A DNA stretch of 64,000 nt from Nitrosopumilus sp. (GCA_965218695.1 OZ244651.1:2395687-2459686), one strand, 5' to 3'; shown: positions 170-30,760, counted from the stretch's first letter. The notes: generated by a model from the sequence alone, not told the origin. Program-made: numbers and translations.

Positions 170-1433
170 GCAGTAGCACGAACCCGCGCTGTTCCAGTGC
201 CGCCGTTGATCCTGCAAAGACACACGCAGGCAACCCGGACGGCGATGCCATCAAGACGCGCCCGTCGTCGCCGCAGACGATCTCGTTTAACGGTACTCCG
301 TCGCGCGCCTGCCGGAGGGGCGCGGGGATTGGATCTGCATTCGCTTCAAACCCTGCGGCAACGGCGCCGAACCCGGGAACCGCGTTGGCAAGCACCACAT
401 TCTCACCCACCGGGCCTCCCAGCGGCTCTTCAGACCCGTACCCGCCAAACGTGATGGAGACATCGACAGGGTCGTCAGGGTACAACGGTGTCGTCGCGTG
501 CGTTTCCTTCCCGCCTGCGATGTGCCCGCCGTCTTCTTCCAAGACGATCCTGTCGTTTTGTGTCACCGTGATCGAATAGTTGGCAAACGGGTCGTCAAAC
601 GAGACACCGATTCCCATCCTCTTGCCCTCCTGCGGTTGGGTGGTCCATACGTCTACTGTGGTGCCGTCGCTAAGCACTCCGGTTGCAGACAGATGGTTTG
701 TCGGCATGTCTTGGTAGAGTCTCGGGGAGCGGTCTATGGCGTTTATGCTTGCGGCGATGTAGGCAGCATCGTCTGTCTTGGTGTCTCGTAGTTCCATATC
801 GATATCTATGGCCAGAAATATGCCCGAATCATGATCGTAATAGTAAGACTCTGACAAGTCAAGACTCATATCATCGGTAACGAAGATATCAGATCCCTCA
901 AAATAATTCATCATCTCGAGATCAGGGGTGACATGCACCCCGACAAACGTCATTTTTGTCACAAGCCGCCCTTCGAACTCGCTGCCCACCTCGAGGCCAG
1001 CAGGCATTACAAGGCTGCCGGGGCTAAACGCTCCAAGATCAACTGATTCGGGATTGCGGCTTATCTCACGCCCATCTGCCATTATGCTGACCTCAAGCGT
1101 GACTGCGCTGCCGGATATGTCAGATACCGCGTATTTGATCCACTCAGTATTGGCAATGTCATATCCAATCAGGCCAAACGGAGACTGTCCAAGTATGTCT
1201 ACCCCATCTCTTGCGATATCCCCTACTCTCCCGTCTCCGTCCGCATGGATCAACACTTGGTACTTTATCCAGTCTCCTACCATCAGGGGCGTTGAGGCGG
1301 ATTCCGCAGCAGCCTCGAATCCTGCAATGGACAACGCAGATATCGCTACTGCCAGTGCCAACATCGCAACCGTTCTCACGGGGGTTGTTTGAATTGGACG
1401 ATACTTAAGTTTCAGACAGAACGCATGCTGCAT
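156..1433 (-). CDS. Secreted protein with a C-terminal 46-47 aa two-Cys 'PLxQ/PACVF' module
   Basis: Signal-peptide-like VAMLALAVAISALSIAG; true start probably near 1380/1362. Module at 180..320. Confidence 0.8.
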   Translation of the reverse strand: MQHAFCLKLKYRPIQTTPVRTVAMLALAVAISALSIAGFEAAAESASTPLMVGDWIKYQVLIHADGDGRVGDIARDGVDILGQSPFGLIGYDIANTEWIKYAVSDISGSAVTLEVSIMADGREISRNPESVDLGAFSPGSLVMPAGLEVGSEFEGRLVTKMTFVGVHVTPDLEMMNYFEGSDIFVTDDMSLDLSESYYYDHDSGIFLAIDIDMELRDTKTDDAAYIAASINAIDRSPRLYQDMPTNHLSATGVLSDGTTVDVWTTQPQEGKRMGIGVSFDDPFANYSITVTQNDRIVLEEDGGHIAGGKETHATTPLYPDDPVDVSITFGGYGSEEPLGGPVGENVVLANAVPGFGAVAAGFEANADPIPAPLRQARDGVPLNEIVCGDDGRVLMASPSGLPACVFAGSTAALEQRGFVLLPEVE

Positions 1434-1443
1434 ATCCCGCCGC

Positions 1444-2877
1444 CTACTTTGTCGGATCCGCGATCTTCCCCATGAAGAGTATCGCGCCGCTCTCGTTGTC
1501 CTGTATGAAGAACAGGAACGGGTGGTCTGCCACGAACGATGGGGGTGGGGGCGGTGCGGATGCTGTAGCTACGACTACCGTGGTGACTGCCGCAGCTTCG
1601 GTGCCCTCTTCGTTGACTTTCAGGTACCCGTCGTGCAGCACGGAGCTTACAAATGCCTTGGGGGAGATATCTGGCAGTGAGCCGACATCAAAAATCTCGG
1701 TGGCTCCAAGATCCTTCAGGGGCCCGTTGAGGGAATATTTGGTGCGTGTCTCGAACTTTGGAAACTCAACTTCGACGTTCGTGTGGCGTAACGCGCCTTC
1801 CCATTCCTCCAAAAGGCTGGCCGACAGGCGTTCCTCCAAGGCGTCGATTCCGTCGCGCTCGCGCGGCAGTGCCACCAGCATCGACAGCCGGTCGCCCTCG
1901 TACGGCATGCGGAGCACCTGTTCGCTGCCGACATTCGCATATTCGAATCCCCCGTATACGGACATCGTGTCTGCCGTTACGGTTCCGCTGCCCGTGTAAA
2001 AGTCACCAGGCCTGGTATCATCGGAGTCGAACTGCACCACCCACGTTCCCTTGAAGTATATCGCGTTTGTGAGGATCATTATGGTGTCAGGCCCCAGATC
2101 TTCCAGGATTTTTTTTATTTTTCCGTTTGTGTTGTCAGAGGCCCACTTGTTTATCTGTTCGACGTCGTTTACCGGCGACACGTCTGCACGGTAGACGTCG
2201 CGGATCGTCTCAACGTACTCGCGGCTGGGTTCGCCGGAGACTAGCCACAGCGCGTTTGCCATGGACAGCTCCGCGTGCGGATCCTCGCGGTTCAGCGAGG
2301 ACAGCGCGCGGGCGGTGTCTTCGTAGCGCGCCTGCAAGTCGGGATCGAAGCCAAACGCGTCATGCAGCTGCTCTGCTGCAGAAGGGCTGGTCGCCTCGTA
2401 CAGCATGGACACTGCCATGTATATGCTGAGAGGGGAGAAGAACGCGTTGCTGCCATCGGGCAGCTGCCTGTACATGTCGATCGCAAATGCGTTGTTGGCA
2501 GAAGACACCTTGCTTGGTATTGCAGACGGCTCTCCGTCAAGTATCGTAACTGCAATTGAGGCGGCAGCGGCTCTTTCAGCCTGCGTCTCGGACGTGGGAT
2601 CTTCGGGATGTCCTGCGGGTGCCGCACCAAGTGGTATAAATCCCCTGGCCTCCAAGTCCCCCACCGATGATGCAAAGACGCACGCAGGCGACCCGGACGG
2701 CGTTGCCATCAGCACGCGACTGTCTGAGCACATGATTTCAGTGAATGGCACACCATCGCGCACCTGCTGGAGGGGCGGCTTTGCGTCGGCCTGCGCAAAA
2801 GCCACATCACCAAACAGCAGAATCATTGCGACAATCAGGGAGCCAAACAGGACTGTCTTGAACGCTTTTGGTACCAT
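1444..2877 (-). CDS. Secreted serpin (serine protease inhibitor) with N-terminal PLxQ/PACVF module
   Basis: Serpin motifs NNAFA, FFSPLSI, NAIYFKGTW, MPY, PKFE, EEGTEAAA and FVADHPFLF; signal peptide; ATG at 2877. Confidence 0.95.
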   Translation of the reverse strand: MVPKAFKTVLFGSLIVAMILLFGDVAFAQADAKPPLQQVRDGVPFTEIMCSDSRVLMATPSGSPACVFASSVGDLEARGFIPLGAAPAGHPEDPTSETQAERAAAASIAVTILDGEPSAIPSKVSSANNAFAIDMYRQLPDGSNAFFSPLSIYMAVSMLYEATSPSAAEQLHDAFGFDPDLQARYEDTARALSSLNREDPHAELSMANALWLVSGEPSREYVETIRDVYRADVSPVNDVEQINKWASDNTNGKIKKILEDLGPDTIMILTNAIYFKGTWVVQFDSDDTRPGDFYTGSGTVTADTMSVYGGFEYANVGSEQVLRMPYEGDRLSMLVALPRERDGIDALEERLSASLLEEWEGALRHTNVEVEFPKFETRTKYSLNGPLKDLGATEIFDVGSLPDISPKAFVSSVLHDGYLKVNEEGTEAAAVTTVVVATASAPPPPPSFVADHPFLFFIQDNESGAILFMGKIADPTK

Positions 2878-2896
2878 ACCAAATAGCAAGTCATTG

Positions 2897-2912
2897 GGGC
2901 TATAACGTTTGA
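2897..2912 (-). promoter_or_regulatory. Putative TATA/BRE promoter, duplicated at about 4198..4212
   Basis: The minus strand reads CATCAAACGTTATAG about 25 bp upstream of the ATG in both the serpin gene and the 3023..4177 gene. Confidence 0.55.
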
Positions 2913-3022
2913 TGAAAGGCGTTTTTTACCAAAAATCCCATGCTCGTAAGGAATTTGTCAATGTGGCGCCCGTCACAGGACAATGGCCATGATCGCCATG
3001 TGAAACAAGCGCGAATCAGTCA

Positions 3023-4177
3023 TCAGTCAAGTCCTCTCATGTATATGGCATACGCGTATTCGCCGGTCCACCCATCGACGATTATTCGTGGAATATTAGA
3101 ATGGCCCGCAGCATATTCGTAGTCGCAATAACCTGGGCTCACAACATAGGCAGGGACTCCAAAGATTACTTTGATGCTTGCCCGTTTGGAGAGATCCGCG
3201 CCCCCAACATCGGCCAGCGTGTACTCGCAGTCGCCGCCTTCCTCTGCGGGACGATTCAGATCTGGATCCATGCCTGCATATTTACTGGCAGCTTCGTACG
3301 CCCCCGTCCGGCTCAGGGTAGGAACGACCAGTTCCGGATCGTTGGTCCACCCCCCAAAAATGATCATCAGCTGGACGTATCCGGAGACGTCAAAGTCAGG
3401 AATCTGGGCTGCCAGTGTTGCTGCGGATCCCGGGACATGTTTGGTCAATACCATCGGAACATTCTCTGCATGATAGTCGGCAAAAAGGAACCGTACGTAA
3501 CTATGCTCTTCAAGGATAGTGTAGGAACGAGCGTCGTAGTAAGAAAGTCTAAAGTCGGATTGCTCAAAGGCCTCCCTGTCGTATTCAAAACCCATCTCAT
3601 CCATGAAATGCTTGACGAACTCCTTTTCGGCCGCGTAATCGTCGCGTCCTATGTCGGTCCTCAGCGTGTAGTCTGCCTCGTTGTCAAGATAGAGTTGGGA
3701 TGTAATGGTGTGATCCCGCAGGCGGATCTTGCCTTGCTCCGTCTCGAACACAGTCCCGAAGCCGTTGACTGTGTCCTTGTTCAGCACGGCGTCTCCGGTG
3801 GCCTCTGCCAGGCGCGACGCGAACCCGTCCGTGTCTATGATAGGCACCCAGTAGCCTGAGGGATTCTGGATCGTCTCCAGGCTCCAGTGCGGGGAGCCGG
3901 GGTCAAGCGCCATCCAAGTGGCATGCTTGTCCACCACGCGCGCAAACCCCCTGTCTTGCAGGATTTCCACGGATGCAGGAAACACGCACGCAGGCGATCC
4001 TGATGGTGATGCCATCAGCACGCGGCCATCAGAGCACATGATCTCGTTTAACGGCACCCCGTCGCGCGCCTGCTGGAGGGGGGACGGCTTTGCGTCAGCC
4101 TGCGCAAAATCCACGTTACCAAACAGGAAAATTACTGCGGCAGCCAGGGAACCAAACAGGACTGTCTTTGATGCCAT
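3023..4177 (-). CDS. Secreted hypothetical protein with N-terminal PLxQ/PACVF module
   Basis: Signal peptide and module nearly identical to those of the serpin (KTVLFGSL..A..LFG.V.FAQADAKP); ATG at 4177; cargo domain not recognised. Confidence 0.85.
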   Translation of the reverse strand: MASKTVLFGSLAAAVIFLFGNVDFAQADAKPSPLQQARDGVPLNEIMCSDGRVLMASPSGSPACVFPASVEILQDRGFARVVDKHATWMALDPGSPHWSLETIQNPSGYWVPIIDTDGFASRLAEATGDAVLNKDTVNGFGTVFETEQGKIRLRDHTITSQLYLDNEADYTLRTDIGRDDYAAEKEFVKHFMDEMGFEYDREAFEQSDFRLSYYDARSYTILEEHSYVRFLFADYHAENVPMVLTKHVPGSAATLAAQIPDFDVSGYVQLMIIFGGWTNDPELVVPTLSRTGAYEAASKYAGMDPDLNRPAEEGGDCEYTLADVGGADLSKRASIKVIFGVPAYVVSPGYCDYEYAAGHSNIPRIIVDGWTGEYAYAIYMRGLD

Positions 4178-4327
4178 TACCAAATAGCAGGGAATTGAGA
4201 CTATAACGTTTGATGAAAGGCGTTTTTTAGCAAAAATCCCATGTCGGTTTGCCGCAGTTCCACGTTCGGGGCTGCTGCGCGGACGCTGCAAAATTCAGTT
4301 CATGGGACCGCCCATTCGTTGGAATGA

Positions 4328-6016
4328 TTAGCTCGCCCTGCCCTTTGATATTCTGGCATTGTCCGGATCCAGATCCTCCCAGACCACGTCATAGCCCATC
4401 TTGGACAGCAGGCCAGCATGACAAGTGTCCGGAATCTTCTGTGATGCCAGTATCTTGCAGGCATCAACAAACCTGGAAACCCCGCCAAGGCTGTCGTCTG
4501 TGGCCTTGATCCTCTCCTTTGAGATCAGGTACGAGCCGACTGCAACATAATCCCCGGGGTAATCGGCAAGAAGGATCTTCAATGCCGCAGCCTCCGGAAG
4601 GGAGTTCTCAAGGGCAACCTGTTTTATGGAGATTAAATCCGGACGGTCCTCGTCAAGTCTTATTCTGGTGTGGATCTTTTCCTCGACGATCTCGGCATCA
4701 ATCTTTTTCAGGTGTTCCAAGACGGGCTTGATTGAGACATCTTTTTGAAAGGTAAAGATCCTCTCCTTGGAGATTGCCTCTATCCTAGAGCATGCAAGTT
4801 CAGAATTTATTGCCACCAGCAGATCAATCCCCTTGTCGTTTTTGCCGCCGCCGCCGCCGTCAAGCAGTGCCTGAAGTTTGTCGGCCTTTCTCTCAAGGTA
4901 CTCCCTTGTCCAAAACCCCACAATTTCAAAGTACACCTTTCTTCCAAACCGCTCAAAAAGAAAGTCCGGAATCATGGCCTTGCCGTCTGCAACTAGCGGG
5001 TCAGGCTCCCGGGAGATTCTCCATCCGAACTTGTCGCTTTGATCAAAGTGCTGATAGAATTTTTTTGCAAATGCCGCCTCTGCAGAGCTGTCATAGGAAC
5101 CGTCGCCGTCGTTTCCAGCATTGCCGCTGTCCTGGTGTATGGAATCTATTGTTGGGCGAAAAAATTCACCGGTGTCCTGATTTGACAGTTCAAACGAGTA
5201 GATCTTTTGTCCGTCGTCTGTTTTTTTGACTATGGAGCCTGTGATCTTCCAGGCCGGCGTGCGTACAATTGATGGCAGCAGTTTGGCCATGGACGTGCCA
5301 TACCTGTCAGTCATCCTGAAGAGGCTGAGCGGTCCTTCCAGAACACATCTGATGGAGTCATCCCAATCGGGGTCGTTGCCTGAATGGTACTCCAGTGTAT
5401 ACATCAGCCCGTATCTTTTGACGTTGCGCAGAACCTGCTTCCAGTATACCCCGCCATTTACATGAAATTCCAGTCTGGCACACCTGAAGAGAAGCGTCTG
5501 AAACAGGGACAGGTTGTACCACAAAATCAGGTCTTTTGTGCTGATGACATCAAACCGGGTCAGTATCAGGTTCTCGTCCTTGTCGCTCCACATCATGGCC
5601 TCGATATCGTCTGATGAGATATGCATCCGTGCTGCAGTCTGCCGTATGATGTCCTGTCTTTGCAGACCGGACAGGGCCAGTCCCCGTCTTGCAGATTCCT
5701 CAAAGAGTTTTTGTCTAATAAGCATGGGCGTTGCAACAGCAGATGATGATGACGTGTTTAATCTCCCAAAAATACAGCGCCGTTCCAACAACGCAGACAG
5801 TCCCCTCACCAGCTTGTAGTCGTGTTCGGATTCAAGCGATCCTATCTTTTGCAGTAGGTCGCCTTTGCGCTGTCTGTCTTTTTGTGAATTCGTGAAAAGT
5901 TCGACAAGCCTGCAGGCAAGATCGTAATCGGTGCTGTTGCCAGATGTTGAAGTGCAAAACAGTGGCCTTATCCTGCCCCGGCTGATCTTGGTGCGCAAAA
6001 GTTCAGACGGGAGCAT
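4328..6016 (-). CDS. bax1: DUF790-family endonuclease (Bax1, XPB partner)
   Basis: MLPSELLR start, YNLSLFQTLLF, GPLSLF...RYG, PD-(D/E)xK-like IPDF...FEIVGFWT; overlaps the xpb stop codon. Confidence 0.9.
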   Translation of the reverse strand: MLPSELLRTKISRGRIRPLFCTSTSGNSTDYDLACRLVELFTNSQKDRQRKGDLLQKIGSLESEHDYKLVRGLSALLERRCIFGRLNTSSSSAVATPMLIRQKLFEESARRGLALSGLQRQDIIRQTAARMHISSDDIEAMMWSDKDENLILTRFDVISTKDLILWYNLSLFQTLLFRCARLEFHVNGGVYWKQVLRNVKRYGLMYTLEYHSGNDPDWDDSIRCVLEGPLSLFRMTDRYGTSMAKLLPSIVRTPAWKITGSIVKKTDDGQKIYSFELSNQDTGEFFRPTIDSIHQDSGNAGNDGDGSYDSSAEAAFAKKFYQHFDQSDKFGWRISREPDPLVADGKAMIPDFLFERFGRKVYFEIVGFWTREYLERKADKLQALLDGGGGGKNDKGIDLLVAINSELACSRIEAISKERIFTFQKDVSIKPVLEHLKKIDAEIVEEKIHTRIRLDEDRPDLISIKQVALENSLPEAAALKILLADYPGDYVAVGSYLISKERIKATDDSLGGVSRFVDACKILASQKIPDTCHAGLLSKMGYDVVWEDLDPDNARISKGRAS

Positions 6017-7614
6017 CAGGCATGGCCTCCGCTGTTCTTGCCGTCCTGTTGGGCGTCATGCCGGTTCCCCTGTGTTGCCAAACCATAGTCTTCCCGGGAC
6101 GCCGAATCTTTTTTCAGTGCGGTTATTCTTTTTGCACTGGTACTTGTCTCCCGCGTATGTCTTGATACCAGTTCAATCAGCCTTGCCTGTCTGCCATCCC
6201 GTTTTGGCCTTAGGATCCTGCCCAGCCTCTGTATCATCTCCCTGCCGCTGCCTGTGCCGCTCATGATTATGCCCAATTCTGCATCAGGAACGTCCACTCC
6301 CTCGTCCAGAACCCTTGATGTGACCACCGCGGTATACCTGCCGGATTTGAATCCCTCCAAGACATCCCGCCTTTCGTCCCTTGCCGTCTTGTGTGTGATG
6401 TGCGGTATTAGGAACCTGTCTGACAGACGGTAGACCATCTTGTTGTTTTGTGTAAAGATTATCGTCTTTGCGCCGCCGTACTGCTGCAGTATCTTTTGCA
6501 GCTCGTCTATCTTTGCCTGGCTGTTTAGTGCAATCTCGTTTGCCCTGTTTCTTGCAAGCATCGCCTCCCTTGCGATCCTGCTTCTGTTTGACATCATGAT
6601 TAGCCGCTTGAGATTATACATTGTGGGTGTCTTGAATCCCAACCGTCTGAGGTTTGCCAGGAACCTGTTGTGGCTGGCCTCGTACTCTTTTTGCTCGTCC
6701 GGGGTCAGGCTGACTTGGATTCGGTCTATGGTGTACCCTGCCAGATGCTTTTGTCTTGAGAGCTCCTGGGAACCAAGGCGGAACACGACGCCTCCCGTGA
6801 GGTACGGGATCAGCTCGTGCAGTTCGTCCTCCCTTTCTATTGTCGCAGTCAGGCCCAGCCGGCATGGCGCAATGAGCTGCTCTGCAATGGAACGGTATCC
6901 CGGGGCGGGAAGATGGTGCACCTCGTCAAATATTACCAGCTTGAATTGGTTTCCAATTGTTGATGCCCGGATGTATGCAGAGTCGTATGTCGCTATGGTG
7001 ATTGCCTGAAGGTCGTCTTCTCCTCCTCCCAGCCTGCCTACGTGGATCCGTTGCGGGTTGTGGTCGTCATCACCATCATCAGTCAAGAGGTATCTGGAGA
7101 CGTTCTCTGCCCACTGTTCCATCAGGTCAATCGTCGGGACCACCACCAGTGCAGACGCGTTTACCCTCTGAATTGCCTTGATTCCCAAGGCGGTCTTTCC
7201 CGCACCCGTGGGCAGAATGACGCATCCCCTCATGGACGCATTCTCCCAGTTTTGCATGGCCTGCTGTTGGTAGTCCCGCAGCTCCAAGCCCTTGATTTGG
7301 AATACTGGTGACGGGATGAAATCAGGTACGTTGTCGACAAAATTCAAATCACTATTCTTTAGATACTCGACAATTTCTGAATAGTTCAGGCCATGGGATC
7401 TCAGGGATTTGGTGCGTTCGTCATATTTTGTATCAGGAATTCTGACCAGTCTGCTGTTCTCAATGAGAATGGTACCCTTGTCAAAGAACAGTTTTGGGTT
7501 TGGTGATGTGCTAGAGGACAAATCTGATTCCTTGTTGCCAGCGGCACTATAATCATTTTTTGTTTGCTCAGGAGATTGAAATGGATACAGAATTGAGCAC
7601 CATATAACATCCAA
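6016..7614 (-). CDS. xpb: XPB/Rad25-family SF2 DNA helicase
   Basis: LRDYQ, LPTGAGKT, DEVHH, LGLTAT, VLDEGVDVP, QRLGRILR. Confidence 0.93.
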   Translation of the reverse strand: MDVIWCSILYPFQSPEQTKNDYSAAGNKESDLSSSTSPNPKLFFDKGTILIENSRLVRIPDTKYDERTKSLRSHGLNYSEIVEYLKNSDLNFVDNVPDFIPSPVFQIKGLELRDYQQQAMQNWENASMRGCVILPTGAGKTALGIKAIQRVNASALVVVPTIDLMEQWAENVSRYLLTDDGDDDHNPQRIHVGRLGGGEDDLQAITIATYDSAYIRASTIGNQFKLVIFDEVHHLPAPGYRSIAEQLIAPCRLGLTATIEREDELHELIPYLTGGVVFRLGSQELSRQKHLAGYTIDRIQVSLTPDEQKEYEASHNRFLANLRRLGFKTPTMYNLKRLIMMSNRSRIAREAMLARNRANEIALNSQAKIDELQKILQQYGGAKTIIFTQNNKMVYRLSDRFLIPHITHKTARDERRDVLEGFKSGRYTAVVTSRVLDEGVDVPDAELGIIMSGTGSGREMIQRLGRILRPKRDGRQARLIELVSRHTRETSTSAKRITALKKDSASREDYGLATQGNRHDAQQDGKNSGGHA

Positions 7615-8649
7615 AATTTGTATCGATATTGAATTGTCTGATTGTATGTGATGTAACCAAGATATCTGCTATAGTGAAAAGTGAAAGTTCGTTCCAAGTT
7701 CAGCACCTCAGACCGAAAACTATGTAGATCAGCCGGTCGCCTAACGCGGCATGATCAAAGTAACACGGGAAGAACTCGAAGTAGCATACAAAAAAGAAAA
7801 GGACCTCAGGGTGGGAGCCAGAATGCTTGCAGTACACATGGTACATTTTCGTAAAATGAGCATAGATGATGCGGCCGTCAATCTTCTGCGATGTCCCAGG
7901 TGGGTACGCAACTGGCTGGAACGCTTCGAGAATGGAGGCCTACAAGGCCTCCGGGATCTTCCCAGATCCGGCAGGCCGCCCAAGATTTCGCCGGAAGCGA
8001 TGGACGGCATACTGGACAAGGTAGTGGACCGGTTCAAGACCACTCCTGCCGAACTGCAGCAGGTCATACACAGGGAAACGGGAACAAAGATGCACAGAAC
8101 GAATATCAGGAAAATCATGCAAAAATACGGCCTGTCTCCCAAGGGGTCGCAAAGGATCCACATCAACAGGGCCACCAAAACGGCCGTAAAAAGCTGGCAA
8201 TATCGCCTCAAAAAGAGAATTTCACGCCTAGAAAAGGACGATTTTGTCCCAGTCGTGGAAGACGAGGCGTTCTTCATACACGACGTAAAATCGGGTCGCA
8301 AGTATTGGTCGCCTGTGGGGGTGCCAATAACCGTGCCATATACGGGAAGCCACAAAAGAATTACCGCGTACGGTTCAATTACAATGGATGGCAGGCAGTT
8401 CTTCAGGACTGCCAGCGGGTTTAACGCGCCCACATTTGTTGCTTATCTCAAGGCCATGCAGAAGCATTTTGGGAAGGTTGCCGTCCTGGTGGACAGGGCG
8501 TCCCCGCACCGCGCAAAAGCCGTCCGGACGCTGCTGCGCGAGAACAAGAACATCAGGATCATATACCTGCCAAAAGGCTCACCGTATCTCAACGCCGTGG
8601 AAGAATGCTGGCACCAGGGAAAACGGAACCTGCTTGTTTCAGAATACTA

Positions 8650-10153: not shown

Positions 10154-11254
10154 TACTGACGATCAAAAGTTTGTGCACAATGCCTCATATTTTCGGCTGG
10201 TAAATTTGAGGATGTCAAGCTTGAACCTGGCGGTTCGATAATACAACGAAACTGCCCGGTGCATGTCCTGAAATGTCCGGTAATATTCCGAGACGAGCAG
10301 GACGCGCTTTCCTTGGTGCCAGCATTCCTCCATCGCGTTGAGGTACGGCGAGCCCTTTGGCAGATAGATCATCTTGACATCCCTGTTGCTGCGCAGAAAT
10401 TCCTTTACCAGTTTTGAGCGGTGCTGCGGGGCCCGGTCTGCCGTCACTACCACCTTGCCAAAATGCCGGTGCAGATCCTTGAGGTATCTGACAAACGTGG
10501 GTCCGTCAAATTTCTCGTACGTCCGGAAAAACTGCCTGCCGTCTTTTGCGATCGAGCCGTACGCTGCGATCCTCTTGTGGCTGCCGGTGTACGGCACGCT
10601 TATGGGATGGCCCACCAGGGACCAATATTTACGGCCGACTATCACGTCGTGTATGAAGATTGCCTCGTCCTCCATTACCGTGGTAAATCCCTCCTTTTCT
10701 AGGCGTGAAACGCGCTTGTTGAAGCGGTATTTCCAGTTCTGCACGGCCTTTTTGTTGGCCCTGTTAACATGGACTTTCCGTGGTGCCTTCGGGGACAGGC
10801 CGTACTGGTGCATGATCTTCCTGACGTACGTGATGTGAAGCTTTACGCCCGTGTCATGGTGTATGTTCTGTTGCAGTTCCGAGGGCGTGATTTTATGGCA
10901 TGCCGTCTTTGCAATTATTCCGTCGATGACGTCTTGCGGGATCTTTCTGGGCCGTCCGCATCTGGGAAGATCACGGAGGCCTTGCAGGCCTCCGTCATCG
11001 AAGCGGCTCAACCAGTTGCGGACCCAGTTTGGGCTCCGTCCTTGGATGTCGGCAGTCTCCTCCACGGTCATGTTGAACACGCGAACCATGCGTACCGTGA
11101 CCATCCTAGCCCGAACCTTGTGGTCTTTTTCTTTTTTGCACGCTTTTTTTAGTTCTTCCAGTTTGGAGTCGTCCATGTCTCCATGAAAGAAAGTCTGATC
11201 TAGAAACTTTGCGGTTGGCTAGGGCATTTGCTCAAAGACTTTTGCGTGTCAGTA
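10154..11254 (-). mobile_element. IS630-family element type C (1101 bp), copy 1
   Basis: TIRs TACTGACGATCAAAAGT / ACTTTTGCGTGTCAGTA; TA duplication; matching copy at 31798..32898. Confidence 0.95.
10163..11176 (-). CDS. IS630 transposase, intact
   Basis: HTH (DLPRCGRP), EDEA, DRAPQH, LPKGSPYLNAME. Confidence 0.95.
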   Translation of the reverse strand: MDDSKLEELKKACKKEKDHKVRARMVTVRMVRVFNMTVEETADIQGRSPNWVRNWLSRFDDGGLQGLRDLPRCGRPRKIPQDVIDGIIAKTACHKITPSELQQNIHHDTGVKLHITYVRKIMHQYGLSPKAPRKVHVNRANKKAVQNWKYRFNKRVSRLEKEGFTTVMEDEAIFIHDVIVGRKYWSLVGHPISVPYTGSHKRIAAYGSIAKDGRQFFRTYEKFDGPTFVRYLKDLHRHFGKVVVTADRAPQHRSKLVKEFLRSNRDVKMIYLPKGSPYLNAMEECWHQGKRVLLVSEYYRTFQDMHRAVSLYYRTARFKLDILKFTSRKYEALCTNF

Positions 11255-11985
11255 TAAGCGGACATTAGCCTTACTCTGCCGGAACCATGCATCTCGAACT
11301 CAGGGCACGACCTGACAATGGACAACAGATCTCCATAGCAATAGTGACGGGGATCAAAGTCTGGATGCGATACTCCAACTATTTGTGCAACCTGCGAGAG
11401 AAAAGCCCAGCCGTCCTCACGTGCGTAGTATGGAATGGCTTCCTTAATAGCCTCTTTTCAGTTAAACAGAGTCTCCCAAGAGGCAGCATCAAGACTAACC
11501 GATAGAGGTAGATCTTCCAAATTCTTGAAGACTGTGCATGTGTCCTTGAACGATATGTTCCTGTCTGAGCTGTCGATTCCCATCACGAAAACACTATCCG
11601 GGTGGATCCTCCTAATCAAGCTGGCAAAATGGTTGTCGCTGGCTACGATGCAAAAACCGTTGACCTCTTCTCTGGAACAGAGCATCTCCACGGCGTCAAT
11701 CGTAAGCGCAAAGTCCGCGGCATTACTACCCTCGGCATAGTTGGGAACAATCTTTATCCTATGTCGCCCAATACATTTCTCCCAGTCTGACAGTTTTTTG
11801 TAGTTGCCATAGATACGGCGTGTGACAACCGTACCATGCCGGCTTGCTTCAGACAGCACGCTCCCAAAGTATTCCGGATCCACAAAATCTCCGTCGATCA
11901 GTACGGCCAACCGGCGCGGGTCAGAAGCCATAACGTGACAATCACAAATCATCAATATACTGTTTTCGTCGGGAGTGGGACACAC
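11255..11985 (-). pseudogene. NYN (LabA/DUF88) RNase + OST-HTH/LOTUS domain protein with a premature TGA at 11458..11460
   Basis: LAVLIDGD, RIYGN, AADFALTIDA, IVASDNHF; after the TGA the same frame gives DGWAFLSQV...PDFDPRHYCYGDLLSIV. Confidence 0.85.
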
Positions 11986-13429: not shown

Positions 13430-13456
13430 TACGCAATATAGTAGTATTTGGAGTAT

Positions 13457-18553: not shown

Positions 18554-19140
18554 TTAGATCACCGGGATGCCAATTTCCTTGAGATAACAGTACGTGCCAT
18601 CGTAAAACTTGCTATCTCTAGTGTCGTCTGCGGGATCTCCTTCGGGCACGAAGATGATCATGCCTTCCCTAGCCCGTGTAAGCAAGACTCGGTACGCATT
18701 CTTTAGAAATCTCTGCTTGTATTCTTTGTTTATTTTGGTCCACTTGTCACCCCGAAACTCCCTGTACTGCCATGTATCTCCCACATACCGCAGATCCGCG
18801 TCCCACCCAATGCACACCCAGTCAAGTTCCAGGCCCTGCACCTTAAACTCCGTGGCAGCGTACTCCAAGCTGCACGAGGAACGTGGATCCCTGCACGGGT
18901 TGAGGAACCAATGGGCGGCATCTATTGCCAGCTCTACGTATATCCCATGGGGCTTGAGGCGGTATGACTTTGCGGCCGCAACTATTCCAAACCTCCTGCT
19001 TCCCCGAGCCCGCGCCCGTAGCCATTTTTTTGTGGCTCCAAAATCTCGTGTGAGCACGATCGGATACTGGTCCATCCCATTCAGCATCCTCTTGGCCCCA
19101 GCATGGTCAAGATCCAGCAGGGATTTGACAAACGCAGATA
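18554..19140 (-). pseudogene. DUF2075 (Schlafen-like P-loop helicase) C-terminal fragment
   Basis: ATEF.VQGLELDW...WDAD, YRVLLTRAR.GM.IFVP.GD; 5' part replaced by IS630. Confidence 0.88.
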
Positions 19141-20228
19141 TAGTGTCGATCAAAAGTTTTTTACATTTAGGGACTTTCTACAGATAAACTCCATTACATC
19201 AATCCTTGGACGCGCGGTCCTGAAATACTCCGACATCGCGTTGCGCATCTGCACTATCGTGGCATAGTACTCGGACACCAGCACGTTACGTTTTGCCTGG
19301 TGCCAGTACTCCTCCACGCCGCTAAGCTCGGGCGTTGCAGCTGGAAGCCACATGACCTTGATGTCGGGATTTTCCTTTAGAAATTTCATCACGATCCTTG
19401 ACTTGTGTTGTGGCGCATTATCCATGATTACGACCACCTTTCCAAAATGCCTGACCAGATCCTTGAGATACTGCAGGACCGTCTCCTTGTCAAATTTTTC
19501 ATGCGTCCTGAAGAACTGCCTGCCGTCTGTTACAATGGAACCGTATGCCACCACCTTTCCGTGCCGTCCCTTGTATGTCGTGACAATCGGCTCGCCTTCT
19601 GGCGACCAATACTTTACGCCCGATGCCGGATCGTCTACAAATATGGCCTCGTCAAAGACGACTGGGAGAAAACCCTTCTCTTGCAGGCGTGAAATCCGCC
19701 TTTTGGCGTTGCGCTGCCACTGCCTGATCTTTTTGATCTCTGGCCTGTTGACGTGGATGCGCCGGGCCGTCTTGGCAGACAGGCCAAGCCTGTGCATTAT
19801 CTTTGTGACGTTTGAAATGTGGTATGTCACCTTGAATTCTTTGCGTATGTTTTCTTTGAGCTGTTTTGGAGTTGTGATGCTGCCAGTCCTTGCTGCAAGT
19901 CCCGCAATCTTCTCAAGCCCGACCTTGGGCGGCCTGCCCGGGCGGGGCCTGTCTTCCAGGCCTGCAAGACCCTCGCTTTCAAAGTGCCGGACCCAGCTTG
20001 TGACAGTGTGCGGGTCGCAAAAGCACAGTGATGCCACCTCGGATACGCCCAGCCCCCTGATCTTGACCATGCAGACGGCGTGGATCCTACCCTTTATGGT
20101 TCCCCTCTTCTCTCTCTTGTAGGCCTGGATTAACAGCTTTTTGCTTTTTTCATCCATGTGGGCGGTAGTGCGGAGTGATCAAAAAATGTTACGCTCAGAC
20201 TGACGTAGAAGACTTTTGATTGACACTA
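19141..20228 (-). mobile_element. IS630-family element type E
   Basis: TIRs TAGTGTCGATCAAAAGT / ACTTTTGATTGACACTA, flanked by TA. Confidence 0.93.
19150..20157 (-). CDS. IS630 transposase, intact
   Basis: RPRPGRP, FDEA, MDNAPQH, LPAATPELSGVE. Confidence 0.93.
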   Translation of the reverse strand: MDEKSKKLLIQAYKREKRGTIKGRIHAVCMVKIRGLGVSEVASLCFCDPHTVTSWVRHFESEGLAGLEDRPRPGRPPKVGLEKIAGLAARTGSITTPKQLKENIRKEFKVTYHISNVTKIMHRLGLSAKTARRIHVNRPEIKKIRQWQRNAKRRISRLQEKGFLPVVFDEAIFVDDPASGVKYWSPEGEPIVTTYKGRHGKVVAYGSIVTDGRQFFRTHEKFDKETVLQYLKDLVRHFGKVVVIMDNAPQHKSRIVMKFLKENPDIKVMWLPAATPELSGVEEYWHQAKRNVLVSEYYATIVQMRNAMSEYFRTARPRIDVMEFICRKSLNVKNF

Positions 20229-20230
20229 TA

Positions 20231-21299: not shown

Positions 21300-21458
21300 A
21301 AGACGTTCTATGAAGATATCTAAAATGGTTATCCAAATGAATTTTTCCGTTTAGATATCTATCAAAGAACTTGAGTTGTAATACTGTCTAGCACTTTGAA
21401 TTGAATTTGTCAATGGCTTGCATGATCCTTTAAATGTTCAAATTACCTTAATGGCATC

Positions 21459-21767: not shown

Positions 21768-22022
21768 TAATAAGGAGCATGTAGTAGAGATATCATCACT
21801 TGATGCTATAGTGAAACGTGAAAGTTTGTTCCAAGTTCAACACATCAAACCGGAAACCATGTAGATCACATAGTCTTCTGACGCTGCATGGTCAAAGTAA
21901 CACGGGAAAAACTCGAAGAGGCATACCGGAAGGAGGAGGATCACAGGGTGGGAGCCGGAATGCTTGCAGTACACATGAGATCTCATGCAGAATGCGCCTG
22001 ACTTAAAAAACTGAATTAAATT

Positions 22023-24281: not shown

Positions 24282-24402
24282 ATTAAATTGGGTTATTCCC
24301 ACGTGCGGCACCACATGCGGCCGAATATCCACAGAATCGTAAAGCATGCCAATCCAAGAAGGATAACCGAAACGTTAAGATCGGTGATTTTTACGCCACA
24401 CC

Positions 24403-26863
24403 GTGATGGCAATGCTAGTCGATCCAACGGTGCAGAGATTACAGCAGGAAAACGAGGCGCTCAGGGAGTCGGATGAATTCCGCCGGCAGAGGATCAGGGC
24501 CCTCAGGGAGGCGCGCAGGACAGACCGACAGAAGTGCGAGGCCCTCGAGGAACACCTGACTGATCACTGGACTGTCACGTCTAGGTATCTTGACGACATC
24601 ATAAAATATCCTGAATTCCTGCACGCCATGACGCTGCGCACCCCGGAAAGGTTTGACCACACGCTGCACCGCCTCGAGGATCTTTTGGAGCGGAACGGGG
24701 AGACTGCGCTCTTTTCTGAAATCAAGAGCAGATCGAAAAACTCCGGGAGCAGGCGCATCCTGCCCCTGAGGCACGCGTATACCAGCAATGAAAAATTCAT
24801 ATCAAAATCGCTCATAAATTTTTGATGCAACAGCCGTCTCTGGAAATTACGAGGTGCGTTGAATTCCCAAATGACGAGAAAAGACGCCCCGAACATTAGA
24901 CATTGCATGCTCTGGTGCGCCGTGCATGGCACACGCTAGGCGGCGTGGATCCGGTGCGGTTTGATGTCGTTCTAGATGGCCCTGTACAGAAAATTCTCGA
25001 CTACCAGATTCGGTTTTTTGTACCTCGTGTACCGGGTGATCGCCTCGCGGAGCATGCTCAGGCTGGTGTACGGCACGTCAAGCACTGCCCGTTTGAGATC
25101 CCTCCAGTACGTCTCTATGGCGCTCAGGTCCGGGGTCGCAGTTGGCAGGAAGATTATCTCCAGGCCGTCTGTGCCATCAAGCAGTTTGCGTATGTTTGAT
25201 GCCCTGTGCTGGGAGGCCTTGTCCATGATCAGGCAGATCTTCTTGAACCTGTACATCGCCTGCCTTAGAAAGTCCTCAAAGGTGTCCTTGGTAAACGCAT
25301 CGTACTGCCGGAACATGCCCCTGCCGTCCGTGGTGATTAGTCCATGGATTATCGTCTTGGAGTGTGAGCCGGTGTACGTGAAAAACGCCCGTATTCCCTT
25401 CCTGGTGTAGCCGCGTCTTCGCGGCCGCGCATCGGAGATTACTATGGACTCGTCCTGTATCGCTACGACTGTTCCTTCACTGTTCTTTTTTTATAATCTC
25501 TGGCATCTCTTTTTGGAATTTCCTGATCTCCTCGTCAGGTGCCCTTCTTGCATGTTTTCCTACGGGAACCTTTTGGGAATAGCCCCACCCGCGCAGTATC
25601 TGGCGCACATATCCGAGTTCGTACTTTACTCCGGTCTTCTGTTGGATGTATTGCTGCATCTCCCTGCCCGTCCAGACCGGTTTACTGCATGCGGCCTTTC
25701 TGATCTTCTTCATGTCTGCCTTGCTCGCCTTGGTCGGCCTGCCGGAGCGCGGCATGTTTCCCAGCCTGTCAAATCCGACTTCCAGGTAGCGCTCATGCCA
25801 CTTGTAGCCCCACGAGGCTGACTTTCCCAGGGATTTTGCAGAATCCCTCATGGTTATTCCATCACGTTTGACTCTGATGATCAGCATCATGCGGTCCTTG
25901 GTATCGCAGTCTGTCTCAGCGGTGTATCTTTTCAACATCGTCTTGATCTTCATTGACTGTGGGACGTGAAATTGGTATAACTCTAGATGCGGTAAAATAT
26001 GTGACAATCGCATCAACTTTTCACTTTTGGTATACCTGCTGTGGCTGTTTCGGGCAAGGCTGAGCATACCGCAGGAAGCCCTTGCCGCGATGTTTGGCGT
26101 CGACCAGGCCACAGTCTCCAGGTACCTTCCGCTGATGACCAGGCTGCTAGGCGAGACAGGCACGGCGCCGCGCAAAATCAGCGAGGCTGCACAAAAGGCC
26201 AGGACGCTTGAGGAGAGCAAGAAGATAATACCCGGCAGGAGGGGAGGAGAACTGATGGTGGACGGCACGCACAACCGGGTCAGAAGGTCCGCGGACAAGG
26301 AGAGGCGCAAAAAGACGTACTCTGGCAAGAAGAAGGCACACACGTACAACACCAACATCGTGATCAACAAGCGCCGCGTGATAGTGGCGATAAGCAAGAC
26401 CGTTCCGGGCAGCGTCCACGACAAGACCCTGCTCAACGAGGATCCGCCAAACCTTGGAATCATTACGGCAAGGATGGGTCAGAAGGACGTGCCCGAAAAG
26501 GAAAAGCCTGACGTCCTGATGGACAAGGGCTACCAAGGGGCAAGAGAGGAATATCCCGGATGGCACATCAGGCACCCGCACAAGAAAAAGCGTGGAGCCG
26601 ACAAAAAGACCGGCGGCCTGACAAAGAAGCAACGCGCCTACAACAAGAGGGTAAACAGCTCCCGTGTGGCCATAGAGCACGTTATCGGAAGCCTGAAACA
26701 GTACAAGAGGCTGACTGACCCGTACGACGGCACCGAGGAGGAGTACAACGACGAGCTCAACGCGATTGCGGGAATGGTAAACCAGGATCTGATGTGGGAC
26801 GAAATAAAACTCAGGGACGCGGACCTTCTCAAAAGGCTGGCCGAGAAAAGGGCGCGCCTCTGA
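24403..26863 (+). pseudogene. IS5-family transposase interrupted by IS630-B
   Basis: Removing 24780..26034 restores RHAY|LLWLFRAR; VDGT, YSGKKK, DKGY, IEHVIG.LK. Confidence 0.9.
24780..26032 (-). mobile_element. IS630-family element type B, copy 2 (split transposase 24972..25953)
   Basis: Near-identical to 8650..9902; TA duplication. Confidence 0.95.
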
Positions 26864-27882
26864 GGCAGGGCGGCACGAGCCGCCTGACGGAGTGAAAGAC
26901 AGGTGGCATCAGGCAGTGCAGGAATGTCGCGCACGGCATCCAATATTTGTGCAAATTCCCCCACCATTCCCCATGAAACAACCTGCCGCCCCGGGGACGG
27001 ATGCCGCACATCCACAGGACGTGCCTTATTTTCCAATACTGGAAACTGGATTTTTCACATGGACGTGCAAGACAAATTTGTAAAATATACGGCAGACGAG
27101 ATTTTCAAATATGGCCACGTCTAGCGCAGTTCTGACATGATTTTATGATTTGCCACGTCAGGCACATTCTGCATAGGATCTATGGTACATTTTCGTAAAA
27201 TGAGCATAGATGATGCAGCCGTCAATCTTCTGCGATGTCCCAAGTGGGTACGCAACTGATTGGGACGCTTCGAAGCCGGAGGCCTTGAAGGCCTCCGGGA
27301 TCTTCCCAGGTCCGGCAGGCCGCCCAAGATTTCACAGGAAGCGATGAATGGCGTACTGGGCAAGGCAGACCGGTTCAAGACCACTCCTGCTGAAGTGCGA
27401 CAGGTCATACACAAGGAGACCGGAACAAAGATGCACAGAACGAACGTTAGAAAAATCATGCAAAAATACGGCCTGTCTCCCAAGGGGTCACAAAAAATTC
27501 ACATCAACAGGGCCACCAAGGCAGCTGTAAAAAGTTGGCAATATCACCTCAAAAAGAGAATTTCACGCCTAGAAAAAGACGGTTTTGTCATAGCCATGGA
27601 AGACGAGGCGTTCTTCATACACGATGTAAAATCCGGTCGCAAGTACTGGTCCCCCGTGGGGGTGCCAATAATCGTGCCATACACGGGAAGCCACAAAAGA
27701 ATTACCGCGTACGGTTCAATTACAATGGATGGCAGGCAGTTCTTCAGGACAGAAAGATGGTTTAACGCGCCCACTTTTGTTGCATATCTCAAGGCCATGC
27801 AGAGACATTTTGGGAAGGTAACTGTCATGGTGGACCGGGCGTCCCCGCACCGCGCAAAGCTTGTCAAGAAATTATTGCGGGA

Positions 27883-28017
27883 GATTCTGCGGCCGGCCCG
27901 GTGCCAGAATGGGTCAGGACGGTTGTCGGAGACTGGTCAGGCGGCACTGCAGAAGATTATGCCTTCGTCAACGCCATACAGTTTCTCATCCGGAGCGGCA
28001 TGATGGGCCTGGGCTGA
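27883..28017 (+). pseudogene. C-terminal remnant of a thaumarchaeal surface protein
   Basis: Reads VPEWVRTVVGDWSGGTAEDYAFVNAIQFLIRSGMM*, matching the common 'IP.W.K....W..G...D..F..AIQ.LI..G' tail; fused to the truncated IS630. Confidence 0.7.
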
Positions 28018-28117
28018 CTGGAATATCCTGATTGCCTGCCCGTGTTTGGGCAGCCTTGGCTCAAGCAACCGGATAATGCCTGCCGCACATCCAAAATCAA
28101 GCGGCGGTCCGTGCCGC

Positions 28118-30760
28118 TTACGCTGTCGGGTCTGCGACTCTGCCCATGAAGAGTATGGTGCCGCTCTCGTCGTCGATTATGAAGAACAAGAACGGGCGGT
28201 CTGCCACAAACGACGGGGGTGACGACAGCGTCGTGACCAAGGATGTCACAGCCGCAGCCTCCGTTCCTTCCTCGTTAACGTTCACGTACGCGTCTTGGGT
28301 CGCCTTGCCAATGAACAGCGGTCCGTCTCCCATTCCGGAGAGATCGGAAAGCGATTCGTCAAAGACGTCCGTTATTCCGAGGTGCGGCAGCAACTTTGTC
28401 AGGTCGTACCTGGTCTTTGCCTCGAATTTTGGGATCGAGACGACCATGTCCGCGTTTGACACAAGGTTCCTCCACTCGCCCACGGCAGTATGCGTGATGT
28501 TTCCTTCCAGTGCTGCCAGCCCGCCCCTTTCGTTCGGCAGCACGACCAGCATGGAAAGCCTGTCACCCTTGTATGGCATGCGAAGCACCTGCACGCCGTC
28601 GGCTTTGGCATATTCAAACTCGGCCATGATGTTCATAAAGTCGGCCTTTACGGTGCCGGTGCCGGTCCAAAAGTCCGCCCCGCGTGTGTCTTTCACTGGA
28701 AACTGGTTCGCCCACGTCCCCTTGAAGTATATGGCATTGAGTATTGCAGCCATGCTGAATTCATTCATGTCGTCGGGAGACAGGACCTCAGGTATCTTGC
28801 CCCGCGTCTTCTTGTCCGCCCATCCGTTTATGCGATCTACTGTGCCCTTGTCCGTAAAATCAACAGTCTCAATATCTGCGCGATAGACGCCACGCACAAT
28901 ATCCACGTACTCGCTGCGCGGCACGAGCCGGTCTGCAAGCCACAGCGAGTTTGCCATCTCCAGCGTGGCGTGCGGGTCATAGCGGTTCAGCGACGACATC
29001 GTGTCATGTACGGACTGGTGTCTTGCCGCATCGTCTAGGATCAGTCCAAACGCCTCGCGGATTTGCTCTGCCGTCTCGCCGCGGGCACCCTCATGCAACA
29101 CGGAGAATGCAGCGTGCATGCTAGACGGGGAGAAGAAATGGTTGCCGGCCGTTTCTGCGACTTTCTTGTAAAAGTCCACGGCAAAGGCGTTGTTTGCCGA
29201 GGCTACCCCTGGCGGAATTGGATCCGGCTCCTCGAACGTGAACGACGTGAATCCCCTGCCAAGCAGCATCTCTGCAGATCCCGTAAAGACGCACGCAGGC
29301 GCGCCGGATGGCGATTGCATGAGAACGCGGTCGCCAGTGCAGACTATCCGGTCTGACGAAACCCCTCCTAGCACTTGCTGACGGGGCGTGGGGGGAAGGT
29401 CCGCCTGCGCGGTCAGCTGAAGTATCTGGACGCCCCCGTCGTCGTACGAGGCAACGGCCGCGTAGGTGCGGCCACCTGACTCGAACGTGTCTATGGCAGA
29501 TGCGCCGCCAAGTGTAACTGTGCGCAAATTACCAATGCCGCCGGCAGCGACTATGTCCCCGGGGTCGGTGATGTCGAATACCTGAACGTTATTTTTAAAA
29601 TTCGAGGCAACGGCTGCGTAGGCGCGGCCGTCCACAGTAAACACGCCGGTGTCGCCTGAGTCGAAATATTCGAAACCGCTGTATGTGATGTTGCCTGCCG
29701 TAGCGATCCTGTGGGGGTCGGTGACATCAAGAGTCCAGATGCCGCTGTTTGTGGTGACGGCCGCGTAGGTGCGCCCACCCAATTCGTATACGTCAATGTC
29801 CTCAGTCGAGGGACGGAAGAAGTAGTCGGTGTGGGTGATGCTGTCTGTTGCGGCGATCTCGTAGGGGTTGGACACGTCGAGGATCTGTATGCCGTAATCA
29901 TACAACGATGCAACTGCCGCGTAGGTGCGATCTTTCAGCTTGAAGGTATCTATGTTGGTTGGCCGGCTAAGCACGAGGTCGCCGACGTCTATGATTGTGT
30001 CAGCCTCGATTATATTGTAGGGATCGGTGATGTCAAGTATCTGGATGCCATCATGGGACGATGCAACTGCCGCGTAGGTGCGCCCTTCGGATCCGAATAC
30101 ATCCATGTCCTGCACAAATGCAAGCATGAGTCTGTATGTGTGGGTGATGCTGTCTGCGGCAACAATCTCGTAAGGATCGGTGATGTCAAGTATCTGGATG
30201 CCCTCGTCGCCTTGCGAGATTACTGCCGCGTAGGTGCGCCCTTCGGATCCGAATGTATCTATGTCCAGTGCGCCTTTGAGCACTAGGTCGTCCGTGTCTG
30301 TGATGCTGTCTGCGGCAACAATCTCGTAAGGATCGGTGATGTCAAGTATCTGGATGCCCTCGTCGCCTTGCGAGATTACTGCCGCGTAGGTGCGCCCTTC
30401 GGATCCGAATGTATCTATGTCCAGTGCGCCTTTGAGCACTAGGTCGCCCGTGTCTGTGATGCTGCCGGCCGCATCAAGGCTCAGCACAGTTGAGTGCGTG
30501 GCCCGTACATGGGTGTCATCTGCGGGAACAAATCCCCTGTATGACAGTACTCCTGTCGATGATTCAAACACGCATGCCTGTATGCCAGACGGCGATTGCA
30601 CCAGCACGCGCTCGCCGGCGCATTCCACCTCTTTTACAGGAATTCCCGATTGCGCTTGCTGGAGGGGAGTGGGGATGGATTCGGCGTGGGTTGCTGGAAT
30701 GGCCACGCACAGAACCGCCAGCGCGACTGCCAGCATCGCGGTCTTTATCACGGGGAACAT
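28118..30760 (-). CDS. Secreted multidomain serpin: signal peptide, module, 7 LVIVD-type repeats, module, serpin
   Basis: Seven R(T/A)YAAV...GIQILD repeats; serpin motifs FFSPSS, NAIYFKGTW, EEGTEAAA, FVADRPF; modules at 30530..30667 and 29249..29386. Confidence 0.93.
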   Translation of the reverse strand: MFPVIKTAMLAVALAVLCVAIPATHAESIPTPLQQAQSGIPVKEVECAGERVLVQSPSGIQACVFESSTGVLSYRGFVPADDTHVRATHSTVLSLDAAGSITDTGDLVLKGALDIDTFGSEGRTYAAVISQGDEGIQILDITDPYEIVAADSITDTDDLVLKGALDIDTFGSEGRTYAAVISQGDEGIQILDITDPYEIVAADSITHTYRLMLAFVQDMDVFGSEGRTYAAVASSHDGIQILDITDPYNIIEADTIIDVGDLVLSRPTNIDTFKLKDRTYAAVASLYDYGIQILDVSNPYEIAATDSITHTDYFFRPSTEDIDVYELGGRTYAAVTTNSGIWTLDVTDPHRIATAGNITYSGFEYFDSGDTGVFTVDGRAYAAVASNFKNNVQVFDITDPGDIVAAGGIGNLRTVTLGGASAIDTFESGGRTYAAVASYDDGGVQILQLTAQADLPPTPRQQVLGGVSSDRIVCTGDRVLMQSPSGAPACVFTGSAEMLLGRGFTSFTFEEPDPIPPGVASANNAFAVDFYKKVAETAGNHFFSPSSMHAAFSVLHEGARGETAEQIREAFGLILDDAARHQSVHDTMSSLNRYDPHATLEMANSLWLADRLVPRSEYVDIVRGVYRADIETVDFTDKGTVDRINGWADKKTRGKIPEVLSPDDMNEFSMAAILNAIYFKGTWANQFPVKDTRGADFWTGTGTVKADFMNIMAEFEYAKADGVQVLRMPYKGDRLSMLVVLPNERGGLAALEGNITHTAVGEWRNLVSNADMVVSIPKFEAKTRYDLTKLLPHLGITDVFDESLSDLSGMGDGPLFIGKATQDAYVNVNEEGTEAAAVTSLVTTLSSPPSFVADRPFLFFIIDDESGTILFMGRVADPTA
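30144..30463 (-). repeat. Near-perfect 156-bp tandem duplication (propeller blades 1-2)
   Basis: SITDT(G/D)DLVLKGALDIDTFGSEGRTYAAVISQGDEGIQILDITDPYEIVAAD occurs twice. Confidence 0.92.

Follow-up and report, generated by a model that had tools for sequence, protein, structure and literature searches.

WING-49, a candidate leader-cassette domain of apparently exported proteins in Nitrosopumilus and its relatives

What does a module of fewer than fifty residues do when it recurs beside serpins, propeller-like repeats and domains of no known family? This is the question raised by a 64,000-nucleotide stretch of a Nitrosopumilus sp. genome (GCA_965218695.1, OZ244651.1:2395687-2459686; hereafter "the window"), in which five copies of a two-cysteine module lie in four genes for apparently secreted proteins. 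Archaeal ammonia oxidisers dominate marine nitrification, and to our knowledge nothing is established on how they keep, sort or display the proteins they export, a matter poorly understood for archaea with only an S-layer. A 2012 review, in the part that touches on this, speaks for some archaea of "as yet unidentified mechanisms" (PMC3387779). A sequence-only reading of the window had proposed that the module is a disulfide-bonded docking or sorting tag, a conserved homology joint through which cargoes are swapped, or both. The best overall explanation, to which we give a probability of roughly 0.45, is that the module, identified here as WING-49, belongs to a shuffled leader cassette and provides a common handle for docking or retention at the cell envelope.

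Identity, range and predicted fold of the module

All five copies were confirmed where the sequence-only reading had placed them (Table 1), with an exactly matching minus-strand translation, and their lengths are as it had given them: 141 base pairs (bp) or 47 residues for the copy in gene 1, and 138 bp or 46 residues for the other four. Each of the four host genes encodes at its start a hydrophobic signal peptide with a terminal AxA-type site. Across the copies 19 alignment columns are invariant, and a profile built from the five retrieves all of them at 1e-27 to 1e-30 in a six-frame search of the genome. The earlier statement that no function has been assigned is correct, yet the module already has a curated NCBIfam model, NF058652.1 ("WING-49 domain-containing protein", 49 positions), which carries a name and no function. 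All five copies match it, over model positions 1 to 47 or 48, with 33.9, 42.0 and 52.0 bits in the single-copy proteins and 73.6 bits, over two stretches, in the two-copy protein; chance similarity is excluded because every window copy exceeds the curated cut-off of 22 bits. Neither the profile nor NF058652 finds a sixth copy in the window, and no Pfam family matches the module at E<=0.1. On this evidence the window copies are assigned to a catalogued but uncharacterised family, with the signature S-P-L-x-Q ... P-A-C-V ... R-G-[WF], derived in this analysis and not from the NF058652 documentation, and with two cysteines that are invariant in the window. The term "WING-49" is absent from the literature searched, where a looser query for the domain under another name also gave nothing relevant among the papers listed.

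The genome that holds the window (2.63 Mb in 9 contigs, 52.8% guanine plus cytosine, GC) has 20 matches above the cut-off, in 19 open frames. In a sample of 301 genomes of the phylum, WING-49 occurs in 38 of the 43 from its own family, the relatives of Nitrosopumilus and Cenarchaeum, at 4 to 22 matches each; it occurs in none of the 257 from other families, which shows only that it was not found in those searched, and in none of 14 control genomes. The domain is thus confined, in the genomes sampled, to the archaeal family holding Nitrosopumilus and Cenarchaeum, and the named close relatives that carry it are Nitrosopumilus sp. and Cenarchaeum sp. metagenome-assembled genomes (MAGs). A profile of 16 own-genome copies, searched against 1.84 billion clusters, returned 4,496 cluster representatives at E<=1e-3 and 673 at 1e-10. 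One top cluster hit (P0001) was dropped as a spurious tandem-repeat match, and the sole non-archaeal locus in a search for related loci (L058), with 22 residues matched, was taken as chance. The nearest clusters in the ESM Atlas are unnamed Nitrososphaerota proteins (0.81-0.85), which serve as a lead only.

An AlphaFold2 model of 52 residues, made from a 16-row alignment, has a predicted local distance difference test score of 94.5 and places a helix at 4-9, a hairpin at 24-27/33-36 and a second helix at 38-46. As modelled, WING-49 is an autonomous helix/beta-hairpin/helix mini-domain with two invariant cysteines. Both the confident fold and the invariant columns speak against a compositional artefact behind the curated model. 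Foldseek found no match in the PDB at E<=1e-3 (best 1.8), VIA-align against 48,161 chains reached a best Z of 2.9, over the hairpin and helix only, and a search of the PDB by sequence gave nothing below E=0.8; in the absence of a convincing Foldseek or VIA-align neighbour no known fold can be named, although novelty of the fold is not thereby proven. In 151 copies taken from the best representatives, a set biased towards high scorers, both cysteines and Gln7 are kept without exception, Pro4 in 99%, Leu27 and Leu47 in 97%, the Arg-Gly pair in 93-94% and a following Trp, Phe or Tyr in 94%. The module appears to be exported and its cysteines are invariant, for which reason they probably form a disulfide. 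Copper binding by the two cysteines was set aside, there being no conserved His or Met. A prediction of the module as a homodimer scored 0.08 against a mark of 0.42, a result that carries no weight either way.

Signal peptide and module as a shuffled leader

The position of the module within its proteins is largely, though not wholly, constant. Among 159 modules in 149 representatives, 93 begin no later than residue 60 and count as N-terminal, 54 are internal and 12 C-terminal. In 88 of the N-terminal cases the module follows a typical Sec signal peptide, with the AxA motif about five residues before the invariant S-P-L-x-Q, so that the module would form the mature N-terminus; cleaved peptides were told from signal anchors by eye. 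WING-49 is accordingly predicted to leave the cell by way of a cleavable Sec signal peptide and to form the extreme mature N-terminus of most of its proteins. The module does not always stand in front of a cargo, as the earlier proposal had it: of the copies in this genome nine are N-terminal, six internal, three C-terminal and two truncated. In the 30 residues that follow the module, the hydrophobic fraction is at most 20% in 24 of 94 proteins, compared with 2 of 94 random windows, and no second hydrophobic segment besides the N-terminal one occurs in the 19 module reading frames of the genome. Two modules are found in gene 4 of the window and in 10 of the 149 representatives. One protein of 455 residues (P0005) has a second, internal module preceded by a signal-peptide-like remnant ending in AFA, and resembles two adjacent leader-bearing genes fused by read-through.

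The cargoes are varied. Those of this genome comprise serpins at four loci (the two intact ones lie in the window, the other two are decayed), a Peripla_BP_6 protein, two SBP_bac_3 plus Cache proteins, a plastocyanin-like protein, a DUF285 plus PKD protein, a DUF2330 protein, a propeller, a PKD protein and several of no known family. When 79 representatives were scanned, 63 had no Pfam family, DUF285 was present in eight, serpin in three and SBP_bac_3 in two, with single cases of Laminin_G_3, cupredoxin and DUF1254 plus DUF1214. To judge from these assignments, WING-49 cargoes are drawn from the cell's secreted proteins in general and do not form a toxin arsenal. The same kinds of protein also occur without the module: serpins are present in 30 of 121 sampled family genomes, and of 28 full-length serpin frames 11 carry the module and 17 do not, nine of 12 module-less serpins starting with a hydrophobic helix that lacks an AxA site (by eye); five of the seven DUF285 loci in this genome are also module-less. 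Of the two decayed serpin loci elsewhere in the genome (C1 1228439-1233722 and 422440-423759), one has been split in three, with gaps of about 1.2 and 2.6 kb, and the other is without a signal peptide and without the first residues of the module.

One indication that signal peptide and module travel together comes from the adjacent genes 2 and 3, which have in common a 309-bp block of promoter, signal peptide and module at 79% identity, and no similarity beyond it. The block begins about 50 nucleotides upstream of the ATG, in a part that is 94% identical and contains a TATA-like box, and it stops at the RGF codons, as the sequence-only reading had observed. In a related genome the cargo of gene 3 (60% identity) is preceded by a different signal peptide (35-40% identical) and a 24-residue linker; in the window its leader is 73-77% identical to that of the serpin. 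One related MAG has four genes, with three kinds of cargo, whose DNA is shared over the signal peptide and the first codons of the module. More widely, 67 representatives with an N-terminal module include 21 pairs, from 15 proteins, in which signal peptide and module are at least 70% identical while the remainders show no BLAST similarity. In a quick maximum-likelihood tree of 30 serpin domains, module presence requires seven changes, at least four of them forced by well-supported branches, against an average of ten for shuffled labels. Two tandem serpin paralogues in another genome (G147), about 85% identical, differ only in their leaders, one a hydrophobic helix without an AxA site and the other a signal peptide, module and linker; here the break falls beyond the linker, where the serpin domain begins, and not at RGF. 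The view of the module as a discrete unit on unrelated extracellular cargoes, in architectures that are not fixed, is borne out by this body of evidence. In these comparisons the signal peptide and module, sometimes with the promoter, act as one leader cassette, and as far as the searches went no earlier description of this behaviour, or of the place of the module behind the cleavage site, was found in the literature.

Gene 1 offers a more complicated case, having been described as signal peptide, domain, module and BspA-type region. The last part appears broken in the window, and an intact succession of module, PKD and DUF285 exists in relatives. The stop codon of gene 1 lies eight codons past RGF (window 156-158); the PKD and DUF285 sequence that follows is read in another frame, is interrupted again by an in-frame stop and a second frameshift, and extends for the most part beyond the left edge of the window, where the DUF285 profile match (90 bits) lies just outside and out of frame with the module. 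In a related genome an intact gene for signal peptide, module, PKD and DUF285 adjoins a serpin gene and forms the counterpart of gene 1. The comparison indicates that domain X was inserted between signal peptide and module, and that the PKD-DUF285 part decayed. As a weak hint at the same place, a contig from sequencing run X5, at a depth of about 31, lacks three letters at 263 and differs over 98-164, the zone of the frame break. Two joints in run X7, 197>2671 and 320>4086 (depth 6 and 2, 85% likeness), may stem from paralogues in other organisms and were left out of the evidence. A database copy of gene 1 has 402 residues and starts at an internal Met.

Breaks of this kind could be taken to mean that the module acts mainly at the DNA level, as a conserved homology tract for cargo exchange similar to pre-toxin regions, which was one half of the original proposal. 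The homology of genes 2 and 3 does end exactly at RGF, leaders and cargoes are mosaic across genomes, and the genes lie in a transposase-dense region, with nine or more transposase frames beside the module genes, in a stretch from 7.7 to 33 kb that may favour rearrangement. Nevertheless we consider this very unlikely. A joint with the high DNA identity needed for cassette exchange is contradicted by the window copies, which are only 62-78% identical in DNA, and module copies in the genome have no exact run longer than 17 nucleotides in common, too little for present-day homologous recombination; the exception is one recent whole-gene duplicate on contig 3. Conservation is at the protein level, in the invariant Cys, Gln and Pro residues; the G147 break lies at the start of the serpin domain; domain X was inserted before the module and not behind it; and no orphan cassettes were seen beyond the two decayed serpin genes. 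The pre-toxin form of the idea is not supported by the nature of the cargoes, which are inhibitors, binding proteins, cupredoxin and DUF285 proteins and not toxins, nor by the position of the module, mostly at the mature N-terminus (93 of 159). Since it is the protein sequence that is conserved, and since breaks also occur away from RGF, WING-49 is a protein domain under selection, marking a natural border between domains, and not a demonstrated recombination device. Duplication and illegitimate recombination have placed the leader cassette before unrelated extracellular domains, and gene fusion leaves it lying between domains. The contig 3 duplicate consists of divergent, near-identical genes with an internal WING-49 (C3 781-2253, minus, and 3740-5293, plus), with 127 identical bases across the module; no other module gene in the genome has a recent duplicate.

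A putative envelope handle and its alternatives

The functional half of the explanation is that WING-49, with its probable disulfide, may serve as a common handle by which exoproteins that would otherwise be free are docked or retained on a shared component of the envelope, a proposal made tentatively and with the odds somewhat against it. A shared interaction is suggested because a small, strictly conserved and apparently exported domain opens the mature chain of unrelated proteins, in many cases with a linker as its tether. Docking or retention is favoured as its purpose because the module proteins lack any other anchor; because module-less serpins mostly begin with what seems to be an uncleaved hydrophobic anchor; and because the cargoes include solute-binding proteins, which in other archaea are normally lipid- or transmembrane-anchored, according to the relevant part of one review (PMC3387779). 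The handle would hold exoproteins in the space under, or on, the S-layer, in place of the anchoring by lipid or membrane segment that is found for such proteins in other archaea, and in this genome the same handle would have been recruited for serpins and DUF285 proteins. The more specific form of this proposal, in which WING-49 is the ligand half of a family-specific, non-covalent system for surface display or retention with one putative envelope receptor, is doubtful.

Several observations weigh against a docking handle. A clearly linker-like stretch follows the module in only about a quarter of the proteins, and internal and C-terminal copies make up 66 of 159, so that the N-terminal place is not essential and a plain structural spacer would fit equally well. 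No binding partner of WING-49 is known, and an S-layer protein homologue is present in all five of the sampled family genomes that lack the module (G116, G036, G124, G215 and G161), which leaves no phyletic link and makes profiling uninformative. The disulfide itself rests on conservation and export, not on the coordinates of the model, and in an orthologue of the gene 2 serpin from a Nitrosopumilus MAG (L047 866-2347) Tyr replaces the first module cysteine, the second being kept.

The spacer alternative deserves the closest attention: a partnerless, very stable, disulfide-locked mini-domain could shield the mature N-terminus or domain junctions from proteolysis, or nucleate folding after Sec export, and could have spread simply by being harmless and travelling with a good signal peptide. 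The presence of modules between domains and at C-termini agrees with such a cap, as do the compact, confidently predicted fold, the fact that nearly all the conserved positions could be structural in a fold of 46 residues, and the failure of any partner to emerge. We regard it as rather unlikely, since polar conservation (Gln7 at 100%, Arg at 94%) over unrelated cargoes exceeds what is usual for a spacer, and cargoes of the same families, the module-less serpins and DUF285 loci counted above, do without it. It is quite improbable that the module is instead an export or sorting signal, recognised after cleavage by machinery specific to the family, which would process the protein, take it through the S-layer or mount it there. 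The constant distance of about five residues from the AxA site to S-P-L-x-Q speaks for this, as do the family-restricted range and the finding that, within one related genome, the cassette is best conserved in its DNA over the signal peptide and the first codons of the module; yet some copies are internal or C-terminal, the module is a folded domain and not a short motif, and no candidate machinery was found, no co-occurring gene having been tested. That modules bind one another and so gather exoproteins into assemblies is the least credible of these ideas: proteins with two copies do exist, but there is no positive evidence for clustering, and serpins and solute-binding proteins act as monomers.

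If the docking and display proposal is true, it would describe a functional counterpart of lipoprotein or sortase anchoring, with the cassette as a plug-and-play leader that equips newly acquired serpins and DUF285 repeats for display, above all in sponge-symbiotic lineages. Marking 4 to 22 exported proteins per genome, mostly just behind the cleavage site, WING-49 offers a concrete handle on protein retention and display in archaea, and reuse of its leader gives a simple account of how host-associated lineages may build secreted serpins and eukaryotic-like repeat proteins. If it is only a stable cap, WING-49 would be an ordinary lineage-specific domain with a tidy shuffling history.

Genes of the window and comparison with known systems

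The expectation of two serpin cargoes and one cargo of no known family was borne out by Pfam (Table 1). The serpin domain (PF00079) scores 331 and 361 bits in genes 2 and 4, over profile positions 2-370 of 370, and neither domain X nor the gene 3 cargo has a Pfam family at E<=5; four homologues of the latter were found, all 58-96% identical and of similar length. For gene 4 the predicted layout of signal peptide, module, propeller, module and serpin held, with repeats that are propeller-like, and the LVIVD label for its middle part was not confirmed, the Pfam LVIVD model giving E=1.5 and 8.7 bits against a cut-off of 20.2. The choice-of-anchor B model (TIGR04312) is likewise below its cut-off there, at 48.1 against 100 bits. 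A 156-bp tandem repeat in the propeller-like part (30017-30464; 2.9 copies, 88% matches) suggests recent duplication of a blade.

Table 1. WING-49 copies, their host genes and associated features in the window
Feature	Position	Strand	Remarks
WING-49 module M1, 47 aa	180..320	-	C-terminal end of gene 1, residues 372-418 of 425
WING-49 module M2, 46 aa	2638..2775	-	Behind signal peptide of 477-aa serpin
WING-49 module M3, 46 aa	3944..4081	-	Behind signal peptide of gene 3
WING-49 module M4	29249..29386	-	Internal, directly before serpin domain of 880-aa protein
WING-49 module M5	30530..30667	-	Behind signal peptide of 880-aa protein
Decayed linker-PKD-DUF285 region, start	1..163	-	Frame differs from gene 1; continues left of window
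Gene 1	156..1433	-	Signal peptide, domain X of about 330 aa, module; longest open reading frame 425 aa
Gene 2	1444..2877	-	Signal peptide, module, linker, serpin; 477 aa from ATG
Gene 2 leader cassette	2638..2942	-	Promoter-like 50 nucleotides, signal peptide, module; homologous to 3944-4243
Gene 3	3023..4177	-	Signal peptide, module, 300-aa cargo; 384 aa from ATG
Gene 3 leader cassette	3944..4243	-	79% identical over 309 bp to gene 2 cassette
Gene 4, 880 aa	28118..30760	-	Signal peptide, module, propeller-like repeats, module, serpin
Propeller-like 52-aa repeats of gene 4	29396..30520	-	About seven

The transposase-dense stretch (7700-33000) holds six DDE_3 (IS630-like) frames, two of which (10163-11176 and 31807-32820) have identical Pfam scores, together with two fragments that have only a helix-turn-helix domain, one DDE_Tnp_4, one rve (IS3-like) and one IS66-like frame. 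At 31292-33735, two frames that resemble by eye the halves of a multidrug/MATE-type transporter are split by the IS630-like element at 31807-32820. Among the insertion sequences lie a NYN-domain protein and a 199-residue fragment of a Schlafen-group-3-like helicase (11458-11985 and 18554-19153). At 4328-7614 an XPB-type helicase (ResIII/Helicase_C/XPB_DRD) adjoins a DUF790 protein, which we take to be the usual archaeal XPB-Bax1 nuclease pair. To the left of the window on C1, a secreted protein of 547 residues (L016 2473-4116, minus) has in its C-terminal part the motif G-G-C-L-V-A-T-A-V-Y-G followed by hydrophobic segments, which may be a different, C-terminal anchoring signal.

The genome as a whole resembles those described for sponge-associated ammonia-oxidising archaea, which in the relevant passages of two accounts have high GC, many transposases and expanded sets of extracellular serpins and DUF285 repeat proteins (PMC6790972, PMC7848895). 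As this high-GC genome, with its many transposases, several serpins and DUF285 proteins, matches those published marks, it is probably that of a sponge symbiont. An N-terminal module is not mentioned in the passages of those accounts that deal with serpins and DUF285 proteins (PMC6790972, PMC7848895).

Three systems built on a reused protein part invite comparison. The PT domains and constant regions of polymorphic toxins resemble WING-49 in being a conserved unit at which similarity stops and after which different C-terminal parts follow; they differ in that WING-49 cargoes are not toxins, the module is mature N-terminal and DNA identity is low. A pattern of immunity genes was neither seen at WING-49 genes nor looked for. 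There are also families of variable surface proteins, such as the lipoprotein families of mycoplasmas and Borrelia, where promoter, signal peptide and first mature residues are near-identical among paralogues and the bodies differ, although the WING-49 block contains a folded domain and a type I cleavage site without a lipobox cysteine, and no phase-variation machinery was seen with it. The dockerins of cellulosomal enzymes (Dockerin_1) differ in detail: no dockerin family of Pfam matches the module at E<=0.1, WING-49 lacks the duplicated calcium-binding loop, is probably stabilised by its cysteine pair, is mostly N-terminal and has no known cohesin-like partner. In design, however, the two are alike, each being a small autonomous module that linkers attach to many extracellular cargoes unrelated to one another, and a dockerin-like arrangement would let one receptor serve many proteins.

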